From NCBI GenBank assembly GCA_011605725.1, contig JAAOZP010000009.1, positions 64,001-128,000 of the forward strand: 64,000 nucleotides of DNA, in the 5' to 3' direction. The notes beneath the pieces were generated by a model that saw nothing but the letters and a program-made list of their open reading frames with translations, made no database searches and was not told the origin of the DNA. Shown one piece after another: positions 12,177-33,387 of this stretch (positions are counted from its first letter, which is position 1; each line of letters opens with the position of its first letter). The position numbers were made by a program, and so were the translations under genes. The DNA is from Nitrososphaerota archaeon. GTDB taxonomy: Archaea > Thermoproteota > EX4484-205 > JAAOZP01.

Positions 12177-12569
12177 ATGGTTAGGGTTACAACGGCTGAC
12201 TACGAGCCGAGTAAAGAACTTGTTGAAGAGGCTTTAGAGCTGCTTAGAATCGCCTCCAAGACTGGTAAGGTTAAAAGAGGCACCAATGAAACCACGAAAG
12301 CCCTTGAAAGAGGAGTTGCTAAACTAGCGTACGTGGCTGATAACACTGACCCTGTTGAGGTGGTGCTCCACATACCTTTACTAAGCAGGGATAGGAAAAT
12401 CCCTTACATAGTTGTTCCGGATAAGAAACAGCTGGGTGAGGCTGCTGGGCTCTCTAACGTTTCAGCCGCGGCCGTGGCGATAATAGACCCGGGTGAAGCT
12501 GCTCCAATGCTTGAAAGCGTGGTTAAGAAGATAGAGTCTGCAAGGGCTAAGGCTGGGGGAAGCGGTTGA
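12177..12569 (+). CDS. rpl7ae: 50S ribosomal protein eL8/L7Ae
   Basis: [24 protein letters not shown]. Confidence 0.96.
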
Positions 12570-12772
12570 GCGAAGAAGCTACTCCGGCAGAGGTTGTCGA
12601 ACTGGTGGCGAGATCAGGCGCCTCGGGCGAGGTTACTCAAGTTAGGGTCAGGATTCTCTCGGGCAGGGATAGGGGCAGAGTTATTCTTAGAAACGTGCGG
12701 GGCCCGGTTAGGGTTGGAGACATACTTATGCTTAGGGAGACTGAGAGGGAGGCTAGAAGGTTCTCGGGGTGA
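12566..12772 (+). CDS. rps28e: 30S ribosomal protein eS28
   Basis: [24 protein letters not shown]. Confidence 0.97.
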
Positions 12773-12778
12773 TGAGCC

Positions 12779-12973
12779 ACGCCCACAGCCTTCAAGTGTA
12801 GCTTCTGCAACAGGACGTTCCTGATCGGGGAGGGCATACTTTATGTTAAGAAGGATGGAAGCATCTTAAGGTTTTGCAGCTCCAAGTGTTTCAGGAACTC
12901 TGTGAAACTAGGTAGGAATCCTAGAAAGGTTAAGTGGGTAACCAGTAAAACGCGGACTGGAGGCACGTCTTAA
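12779..12973 (+). CDS. rpl24e: 50S ribosomal protein eL24 (absent from the ORF track; apparent ACG start)
   Basis: Manual translation (M)[54 protein letters not shown]; in-frame TGA at 12773-12775 blocks upstream starts. Confidence 0.93.
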
Positions 12974-13629
12974 TGAGGCTTGTGATCTTCGGCCCGCCTG
13001 GCTCAGGCAAGGGAACGTATGCTTCAAGGCTTGCTCCGAGGCTCGGGGTACCGCATATTTCAACCGGGGACATTTTGAGGGATGAAGTGAAGAGCGGCTC
13101 AGAGCTGGGTAAAAACATATCGAGCTATGTTTCAAGCGGGAAACTTGTTCCAGACGAGGTTGTGAACAGGGTTATGGAGAAAAGGCTTTCACAGGAAGAC
13201 TGTAAGAGAGGCTTCATACTTGACGGTTACCCGAGGACACTGAAACAGGCTTTTTTCTTGGAAAAGATTTCGAAAATAGATTTCGTGGTAAACCTGAATG
13301 TTCCGGATGAGGTTATAGTCAGACGCTTGTCTTCAAGGCTTGTCTGCAGGAGATGTGGTGCAATATACAATAGGATAACGCTTCCGCCTAAGGTTGACGG
13401 TGTCTGCGACAAGTGTGGAGGAGAGCTTTATCAGAGGGATGACGATAAGCCTGAAGTAGTAAGAGAAAGGATAAGAGTGTATAAGAATGAGGCTGCTCCG
13501 CTGCTTGAACACTATCGTAAGTCCGGGGTGGCGGTAATTGATTTCTACTATGAACCTGATGAGACTGGTGGCGATGTTTCGCCAGACACCGTTGTAGACA
13601 GGATTATTAAGGCTCTTAAAGGCTCTTAA
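12973..13629 (+). CDS. adk: adenylate kinase, bacterial-type with zinc LID
   Basis: GPPGSGKGT, HISTGDILR, FILDGYPRT, CRRC...CDKC, QRDDD. Confidence 0.95.
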   Translation: MRLVIFGPPGSGKGTYASRLAPRLGVPHISTGDILRDEVKSGSELGKNISSYVSSGKLVPDEVVNRVMEKRLSQEDCKRGFILDGYPRTLKQAFFLEKISKIDFVVNLNVPDEVIVRRLSSRLVCRRCGAIYNRITLPPKVDGVCDKCGGELYQRDDDKPEVVRERIRVYKNEAAPLLEHYRKSGVAVIDFYYEPDETGGDVSPDTVVDRIIKALKGS

Positions 13630-17404: not shown

Positions 17405-17790
17405 TGGTTCTCCTCGACTCTAGCGCTCTGCTGGCTCCATTCGAAACCGGGGTTGATTTCATAAACGGAATAACTGGGTTGACTCAAGGCAGAACATTGT
17501 TCCTAATACCTTTCGAAACGCTTATAGAGCTTAAGAGACTGAGCATTAATGGGCCTAGGCTTTCCGGTATGGCTAGGCTAGCCCTATCTGTTGCAAGCGG
17601 TTTCAGAACACTGCTTCCAACCGGTATGAGCTGTGACGATGCACTCGTTTACCTTGCAAAAACTTATAAGGCTGGTGTGGCAACAGCCGACAGGACGTTA
17701 AGCAGGAGGCTTAGAGCCTTGGGTATACCTGTTTTCTATCCTTCGGGGGGAAGAAGGATAGTTGGGAAAGGATGGTTCGAAAAGGGGTGA
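17404..17790 (+). CDS. Fcf1/Utp24-like PIN-domain protein
   Basis: VLLDSSAL, CDDAL, VATADRTL; conserved position between eif2g and rpoE1. Confidence 0.85.
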   Translation: MVLLDSSALLAPFETGVDFINGITGLTQGRTLFLIPFETLIELKRLSINGPRLSGMARLALSVASGFRTLLPTGMSCDDALVYLAKTYKAGVATADRTLSRRLRALGIPVFYPSGGRRIVGKGWFEKG

Positions 17791-17796
17791 TGAGGG

Positions 17797-18378
17797 TTAT
17801 TCAAGATAATCGAGCTTGAAGACGTGGTGAAGGTTCCGCCTTCCAGGCTCGGCGACCCTGTTGATGAAATTTTCAAAAACGTTCTTAAAGACAGGTATGA
17901 GGGTATGGTTATAGAGGGAATCGGATACATAATTCTGCTGGTGGATTACGACTTTAACCCAGTGGGTCAGATATCCCCTGGGGACGGTCACAGCTATCAC
18001 AAGGTTAGGGTGAAGGTGCTCTCCTATTATCCGGAGGTTAACGAGGTTGTTGAGGGGAGAGTTGTCGAAGTGGAGGAGTTCGGGGTTTTCGTGAGGCTCG
18101 TGACCACTGACGCTTTAATGCACGTGAGTCAGATTACTGACGATTACATGGATTACAATAGTTCCCAGGGCATTCTCGTCGGGAGACAGACTAAGAGGAT
18201 AATTCAGAAGAACGATTGGGTTAGGGCTAGGGTGGCTGCAGTATCTATAGGCAGGGGAGCCATGACTGACAAGATTGGGTTAACCGCTAGACAGCCCTTC
18301 CTGGGGAAGATCGAGTGGATTGAAGAGGACATTAGGAGGCTGGCTGGTGAGAAGCCTAAGCAGGAGGCTAAGGCTTAA
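17797..18378 (+). CDS. rpoE1: RNA polymerase subunit Rpo7/E' (apparent TTA start)
   Basis: (M)FKIIELEDVVKVPP, EVVEGRV, MHVSQI, GLTARQPFLGKIEW; in-frame TGA at 17791-17793. Confidence 0.95.
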   Translation, partial: LFKIIELEDVVKVPPSRLGDPVDEIFKNVLKDRYEGMVIEGIGYIILLVDYDFNPVGQISPGDGHSYHKVRVKVLSYYPEVNEVVEGRVVEVEEFGVFVRLVTTDALMHVSQITDDYMDYNSSQGILVGRQTKRIIQKNDWVRARVAAVSIGRGAMTDKIGLTARQPFLGKIEWIEEDIRRLAGEKPKQEAKA

Positions 18379-32912: not shown

Positions 32913-32931
32913 CTAAGGGTGGTGACGCGGC

Positions 32932-33387
32932 TTGAAGAGGATTAGGCTTTCAAAGGAGTCTGAAAGCCTTCTACTGGCTTCTGTTGAAGAGGTCCGTAGG
33001 AAGAGGCTGATAGAGTGGAGGCGTCAGCCGGCTGTAATCAGGGTTGAGAACCCTACTGACGTGAATGCTGCGAGAAGGCTTGGCTACAGGGCTAAGCCTG
33101 GCTTCATAATAGTCAGGTCGAGGGTTAGGAAGGGTGGTAGGAGGAAGCCTAGGCCAAGGTCAGGGAGGAGGCCTAAGCACCTGGGGGTCGTCCTGTTTAA
33201 ACCCGGTAAGAGTAGGCAGAAGATGGCTGAGGAGAGGGCTGCCCGTAAATATCCTAACATGAGGGTTCTGGGCTCCTACTGGGTTGGGGAGGACGGGGTC
33301 TACAAGTGGTTTGAAGTCGTGATGGTGGATCCCAATCATCCGGCTGTCGCCGGCGACCCGAGGTTGAAATGGCTTAGGAAAGATTAA
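32932..33387 (+). CDS. rpl15e: 50S ribosomal protein eL15 (short C-terminus)
   Basis: [37 protein letters not shown]. Confidence 0.96.

Follow-up and report, generated by a model that had tools for sequence, protein, structure and literature searches.

A conserved ACG at the proposed initiator position of rpl24e in a genus of Brockarchaeota

Introduction

From which codon is rpl24e translated when its reading frame offers no ATG, GTG or TTG ahead of the first zinc cysteines? The question is raised by a ribosomal protein gene cluster in the window, the whole 64,000-nucleotide stretch of DNA analysed here, which comes from a genome of a Brockarchaeota genus, archaea of hot springs that have not been cultured. 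Reviews give AUG, GUG and UUG as the codons on which archaea initiate (PMC4705826, PMC6237735), and the aIF1 of Sulfolobus rejects the non-canonical start AUU (PMC4705826). All 64 codons have been quantified as starts in E. coli, where initiation on ACG reaches about 0.1-1% of that on AUG (10.1101/063800). The limited set of literature searched yielded no account of an archaeal gene that naturally starts with ACG.

A preliminary description of the window proposed that an ACG occupies the initiator slot behind a Shine-Dalgarno (SD) element. It named a +1 slip from an overlapping ATG, C-to-U editing and an assembly error as alternatives. These readings, together with a restart with Thr-tRNA or with no initiator, were weighed against the junctions of related genomes and the initiation signals of the genome itself.

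Methods

All coordinates are window coordinates unless a genome and contig are given. The order comprises 26 genomes, nine of which belong to three sister families; the genus is represented by the species of the window and 16 others. A further 30 archaeal rpl24e loci included Thermofilaceae, Desulfurococcales, Sulfolobales, Nitrososphaeria, DPANN and others. Three close relatives (L130, L131 and L134) are metagenome contigs with 74-92% protein identity. The metagenome contigs used at the junction itself span 12734-12795 and 12766-12980.

For the spacing census, ORFs of at least 150 codons were taken with their first canonical start, and the distance was counted from the T of GGTGAT (the SD register) to that start. 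A spacing scan over all positions returned codon periodicity alone, and the census at ORF edges was used. Further start slots were sought in a genome scan of ORF 5' edges lying behind GGTGA plus 5-7 nt with no canonical start nearby. The fourfold test comprised 43 degenerate sites with an invariant amino acid in rps28e and rpl24e of the 17 species.

Results

The features discussed are listed in Table 1. The end of rpl7ae overlaps the start of rps28e by 4 nt. rps28e and rpl24e share one reading frame with TGA TGA between them, a point absent from the preliminary description. Beyond the two stops the sequence reads GCC (12776-12778), ACG (12779-12781), CCC ACA GCC TTC AAG TGT. The open eL24 frame, 12776-12973, encodes 65 aa and scores 62.7 bits against Pfam Ribosomal_L24e (PF01246; cut-off 27, E 3.9e-17, residues 7-56). 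Its zinc motif, C-x2-C ... C-x3-C, is present, and the cysteines are kept across 17 aligned species. The Pfam profile, the zinc motif and the L7Ae-S28e-L24e synteny all identify the product as eL24. One rpl24e copy is present in the 2.23-Mb, 93%-complete assembly, of which the window forms contig 19; the second copy that would have overturned the preliminary description was not found there.

Table 1. Features of the rpl24e locus and of other genes discussed (entries beginning with G000 lie elsewhere in the same genome)
Feature	Coordinates	Strand	Remarks
rpl7ae	12177..12569	+	ORF; Pfam Ribosomal_L7Ae, 1e-24; opens the conserved L7Ae-S28e-L24e cluster
rps28e	12566..12772	+	TTG start; TGA stop at 12770-12772; Pfam Ribosomal_S28e, 6e-30
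SD element GGGGTGAT	12766..12773	+	All 17 species keep its GGG Gly codon and TGAT
Out-of-frame ATG	12772..12774	+	Overlaps the rps28e stop; within the SD duplex, spacing -2
Intergenic spacer TGAGCC, 6 nt	12773..12778	+	Second in-frame TGA and a variable triplet
ACG, proposed rpl24e initiation codon	12779..12781	+	Invariant in 17 of 17 species; 5 nt past GGTGAT
rpl24e CDS as proposed	12779..12973	+	64 codons plus TAA; zinc Cys at codons 7, 10, 33 and 37
adk, bacterial-type adenylate kinase	12973..13629	+	ATG overlaps the rpl24e TAA (TAATG, 12971-12975)
rpoE1 (Rpo7), initiator slot	17797..17799	+	TTA at the slot after GGGGTGATGAG; junction as in rpl24e
aIF1	G000:C17:65477-65689 (L242)		Own genome; loop 1 TRWNKQ
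atpA (A/V-type ATPase subunit A)	G000:C7:99783-101558 (L059 784-2559)	-	ACG at the start slot
iscU/NifU_N-like gene	G000:C7:60274-60648 (L253 375-749)		ACG at an SD-defined slot
Pol-beta-type nucleotidyltransferase	G000:C3:27111-27560 (L060 1112-1558)		ACG TCG AGA behind AGGAGGTGA

The preliminary description had the eL24 frame closed upstream and devoid of a canonical start before the zinc cysteines, and both statements held. TGA TGA stands directly 5' of the frame (12770-12775), and the first in-frame canonical codon is a GTG at codon 42, past all four cysteines. The ATG at 12772 is out of frame, as claimed, and by itself encodes only the nine codons MSHAHSLQV before a stop. The position of the ACG, 6 nt past GGGGTGA and thus 5 nt past GGTGAT, was likewise confirmed, as were the two comparators that had been cited for this spacing: GTGA-TGAGAA-ATG of rps4 at 25-37 and GGTGA-CGCGGC-TTG of rpl15e at 32921-32934.

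Translation of adk is probably coupled to that of rpl24e because the adk ATG overlaps the rpl24e stop. The adenylate kinase has a zinc lid, and its gene occupies the place where ndk usually follows rpl24e.

The junction was re-checked in contigs of three hot-spring runs, independent of one another and from different studies, with zero substitutions or indels. Across all 17 species of the genus it reads GGG TGA TG[A/G] NNN ACG CCN. The triplet 5' of the ACG varies non-synonymously (GCC, GAC, GTC, GCA or ACC), and the codon 3' of it is always Pro, with synonymous changes alone (CCC, CCT, CCA). The alignment of orthologous junctions, which had been suggested as a check, has ACG throughout the genus and, in the same column, ATG or TTG in nine of nine sister-family genomes, followed by the same Pro (ATG CCC, TTG CCT). 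At the other archaeal rpl24e loci the aligned codon is ATG, GTG or TTG without exception (30/30). Judged by this alignment, the ACG is the codon at the initiator position of rpl24e.

The three close relatives carry a canonical codon in the slot. The junction is GGG TGA TGA AAA ATG CCA in L134, GGG TGA TAA GCA GTG CCG in L130 and GGGTGATTAGCCA TTG CCC in L131. Predicted proteins in a large protein collection (MPASFKC.., MPSSFQC.., LPTAFKC..) agree with a canonical slot in relatives. A maximum-likelihood tree of 570 nt splits the clade from the sister families at 100/99 support and nests the three sequences among ACG-bearing ones with moderate support (83-91). The simplest history would be that ATG gave way to ACG once, in the founder of the clade, and that a few reversions came later, a reading not forced by strongly supported branches.

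Over codons 2-41 of rpl24e the median dN/dS among the 17 species was 0.06, at a dS of about 1.2 that leaves synonymous sites saturated. It follows that the codons just 3' of the ACG, among them those of the first Cys pair, are translated and under constraint. In the fourfold test the third base was invariant at 3 of 43 sites, namely the ACG, the GGG Gly codon of the SD element and one Thr codon; apart from the ACG and the SD Gly codon this is one site in 41. The pattern is read as an ACG start because the 5' triplet changes non-synonymously, the 3' codon changes synonymously and the third base of the ACG is frozen. It is the pattern that would be expected of translation from the ACG, with its G serving beyond the coding of Thr.

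The 3' end of the 16S rRNA, GGGATCACCTCCT, is a normal anti-SD. It can pair with GGGGTGAT in an 8-bp duplex that has one G-U pair and takes in the rps28e stop. Genome-wide, the spacing from GGTGAT to the start has a sharp maximum at 5 nt, where 82 of about 390 starts with an SD of at least 5 nt fall. The ACG of rpl24e stands at this mode. A spacing of -2, that of the out-of-frame ATG, is rare (6 of about 390).

The initiator tRNA is ordinary, with a CAU anticodon, A1:U72 and the GGG/CCC stem. A special initiator tRNA reading ACG was considered and rejected, as the sole initiator-type tRNA carries CAU. tRNA-Thr(CGU) has no initiator features: its terminal pair is G1:C72 and the GGG/CCC stem is absent. 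An apparent A1:U72 in tRNA-Thr(CGU/UGU) arose because the ARAGORN boundaries were one base off.

Loss of aIF1 was also rejected, since the factor is encoded in the genome itself and in 13 of 16 congeners. Its loop 1 reads TRWNKQ in the genus, in contrast to RKFNKP in the sister families. The genus aIF1 lacks the N-terminal zinc knuckle that is found in one sister family (G017). In P. abyssi aIF1, R31, the aromatic residue 32 and K34 are important (PMC6237735), and the residues aligned to them are kept in the genus. A link between the altered loop 1 and a relaxed choice of start codon is possible, and is taken as a lead only because these key residues are kept.

The genome scan for start slots behind an SD returned ATG 41 times, TTG 16 times, ACG and GTG 7 times each, and every other codon at most 5 times. 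The seven ACG slots compare with 1.6 expected (Poisson P 0.0014, or 0.006 without rpl24e; both P values are rough). Three of the genes concerned can be compared with relatives. At atpA the junction is AGGAGGTGA-AAACACA-ACG AGA GAA GGA, with the atpF stop a TGA inside the SD and a gap of 7 nt between the two genes. The slot is ACG in two congeners and ATG, in the context ATG AGR GAR GG, in a third congener and in a sister genus. The first ATG is not reached until residue 24, and the Pfam beta-barrel domain sets in at residue 6. The slot of the iscU-like gene is ACG in three species of the genus, with ATG or GTG within one codon in relatives. The ACG TCG AGA of the nucleotidyltransferase aligns with ATG TCG AGA of congener paralogues.

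With this atpA as query, the ATPase was found in only 5 of 16 congeners, and two of these five (G009 and G015) carry a type 49-53% identical, with a normal ATG. An ORF of 62 codons, predicted to encode a membrane peptide (P0010; G000:C4:215673-215861, L061 1074-1259), also opens with ACG, preceded by a perfect 10-nt SD, AGGAGGTGAT, and 5 nt. No Pfam match was obtained for this 62-aa ORF or for the ACG candidates L254 and L255. An ATC start for a MinD-like gene (C12) was discarded, the true ATG lying 11 codons downstream according to relatives.

A different codon fills the slot at rpoE1. In the window, GGGG TGA TGA GGG precedes TTA (17784-17799), and an 11-mer is common to this junction and that of rpl24e. 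The slot is TTA in 13 species of the genus, CTG in two and TTG in one; it is TTG or ATG in the sister families.

A Brockarchaeota L24e annotated at NCBI is a protein of 51 aa that starts MIGEGILY at an internal CTG, codon 15, and lacks the first Cys pair. Only six clusters of matching length were found in a collection of 5.8 billion proteins.

Discussion

SD-driven initiation on ACG, as put forward in the preliminary description, gave the best fit to the comparative tests, that is, to the homologous slot, the toggling of the slot codon, the modal spacing and the third-base constraint. Four features by which near-cognate initiation is recognised were found: no canonical start upstream, a homologous slot, selection at the level of the codon and an SD at working distance. 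On these comparisons rpl24e of this Brockarchaeota genus is probably translated from the near-cognate ACG at 12779-12781. The out-of-frame TGATG counts against this start, as none of the 17 species departs from it; SD pairing accounts for its A and T but leaves its G unexplained.

In the mechanism proposed, the 3' end of 16S rRNA would pair with the SD element at 12766-12773 and so bring the ACG, 5 nt downstream, into the P site. The ordinary initiator Met-tRNA (CAU) would be accepted there with one central C-A mismatch. Ribosomes ending rps28e would be held at the junction and restart on rpl24e, and such termination-reinitiation would lift the yield of a weak start codon. The predicted product is Met-Pro-Thr-Ala-Phe-Lys-Cys..., with PTAFKC as the mature N-terminus once Met has been removed. 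The use of Met-tRNAi, the share of reinitiation and the efficiency at the ACG are points that we infer only. Termination-reinitiation probably contributes, because the rps28e stop lies inside the SD and 6 nt ahead of the ACG. The two genes are on the same strand with a gap of 6 nt, where an overlap or a gap of no more than about 10 nt is taken to indicate coupling. Short gaps, 6 nt among them, lie within the range of termination-reinitiation in Haloferax and E. coli (PMC10666635). A high output from the ACG, such as a ribosomal protein requires, would nonetheless need an unusually permissive context, given the weakness of this codon in E. coli and the presence of aIF1 here.

An artefact or a dead gene, that is, an assembly or sequencing error or an untranslated rpl24e pseudogene, would account for the absent canonical start, and the 51-aa truncated protein annotated in a relative could be taken the same way. 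The chance of this is nevertheless negligible. The junction is identical in the 17 species and in contigs of the three independent runs, which also removes the assembly error named in the preliminary description; moreover rpl24e is single-copy, with a dN/dS of 0.06, four zinc cysteines kept and a stop to which adk is probably coupled. A fusion of S28e and L24e by readthrough was rejected as well: two stops intervene, and L131 has the two genes in different frames. A further reading is a start at the ATG of 12772-12774 with a +1 shift inside the two opening codons (ATG AGC C to GCC/ACG), which would give M-(S/A)-T-P-T-A-F-K.... The invariance of TGATG in the 17 GTDB species speaks for it, and the distance of 7 nt from ATG to slot recurs at the rpoE1 junction of the same genome. 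The ATG, however, sits in the SD duplex at its spacing of -2 and is missing in L130 (TGATAA) and L131 (TGATTAG), as it is from the rpoE1 junction in 5 of 16 species. The next codon differs among species (AGC, AGA, AGT, GGC, GGA, AAC), so no slippery or hungry codon is in place, and local RNA structure is not significant (MFE z -1.42, 12750-12850). No ATG lies near the ACG sites of atpA, the iscU-like gene and the nucleotidyltransferase, and a shift would leave the third-base invariance of the ACG unexplained. L134 and the rps4 of the window both keep TGATGA, yet a normal ATG fills the slot. The rps4 junction (GTGATGAGAA ATG, 25-37) has the same geometry as rpl24e, TGATGA plus 3 nt, and in that arrangement the first ATG of TGATGA is therefore not the start. 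A shift from this ATG, already offered as an alternative in the preliminary description, is thus disfavoured and strikes us as very improbable; the ATG itself most likely arises incidentally from TGA TGA rather than serving as a start.

C-to-U editing would turn the ACG into AUG in the mRNA and leave initiation itself canonical. A single deamination is enough for this, the C is invariant, and recurrent ACG slots fit the editing of a class of sites as well as they fit relaxed initiation. The TTA slot of rpoE1 in the same genus is, however, beyond repair by C-to-U editing, and C-to-U editing of archaeal mRNA was not found in the limited set of literature searched. For these two reasons editing is held to be improbable. 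In plant chloroplast and mitochondrial mRNAs, ACG starts are restored to AUG by C-to-U editing, and the likeness to rpl24e is a genomic ACG at the initiator Met position of a conserved gene; we know of no editing machinery or edited transcripts for archaeal mRNAs. Finally, translation might resume after rps28e termination with no initiator, or with Thr-tRNA(CGU) on the ACG, leaving Thr at the N-terminus. The stop only 6 nt upstream, inside the SD, would suit such a restart, and ACG-started GFP in E. coli carried N-terminal Met, with some Thr peptides, in trace amount, beside it in one culture (10.1101/063800). Against this, tRNA-Thr(CGU) has the non-initiator features given above, and the ACG alternates in this slot with ATG, GTG and TTG, all three read by the initiator tRNA. 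No initiator-free restart in archaea is known to us. We regard this reading as highly improbable, and initiation by Met-tRNAi on the ACG stays the preferred account.

Near-cognate initiation is a known kind of event, and the archaeal ACG case would be new relative to the literature searched. AAV VP2 and the Sendai virus C' protein are examples of near-cognate ACG or CUG starts. Eukaryotic and viral near-cognate initiation (PMC4705826) resembles the present case in that the codon is one mismatch from AUG, use depends on context, eIF1 and aIF1 are homologous, and the ordinary initiator tRNA presumably decodes the codon in both. It differs in relying on scanning and the Kozak context, whereas here an SD duplex and an upstream stop would act on a polycistronic archaeal mRNA; and it yields an alternative isoform, whereas here the ACG would be the sole start of a core ribosomal protein gene.

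Conserved AUU starts are present in E. coli infC and pcnB, and to our knowledge ACG is not a natural bacterial start. A conserved GTC start is given for Streptomyces sigR in PMC5472188. These bacterial cases share with rpl24e a natural, conserved weak codon behind an SD. They differ in that IF3, not aIF1, is the fidelity factor and in that the weak start is regulatory, a role not evident at rpl24e. Termination-reinitiation between genes with a short overlap or gap, described in archaea and bacteria (Huber et al. 2019, cited in PMC10666635), has its parallel here in two genes of one strand that lie 6 nt apart, the SD falling within the end of the first, an arrangement also seen at atpF-atpA. 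The cases described in that account restart on ATG or GTG, unlike the present one, and no report of a restart on ACG was found in the literature searched.

Whether ACG is a regular fourth start of Brockarchaeota, used where a ribosome, terminating or pre-initiation, is kept by an SD at the distance required, is in our judgement evenly poised. If it is, Met-tRNAi would be used on ACG efficiently enough for a stoichiometric ribosomal protein and for the catalytic subunit of an ATPase. It would work despite aIF1, and the archaeal rule of AUG, GUG and UUG would be incomplete. Core genes of these lineages would then be missed or cut short by gene callers as a rule. As rpl24e is already mis-called, the proteomes of these metagenome-assembled genomes are affected, and possibly also completeness estimates based on markers.

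An ACG that is the sole possible start over at least 17 species would by itself show the archaeal start rule to be incomplete, and the argument extends to atpA and two other ACG genes of the genome. The rpl24e junction would thus be a natural substrate for asking how SD pairing and reinitiation relax proofreading in a system of the eIF1/eIF2 type.
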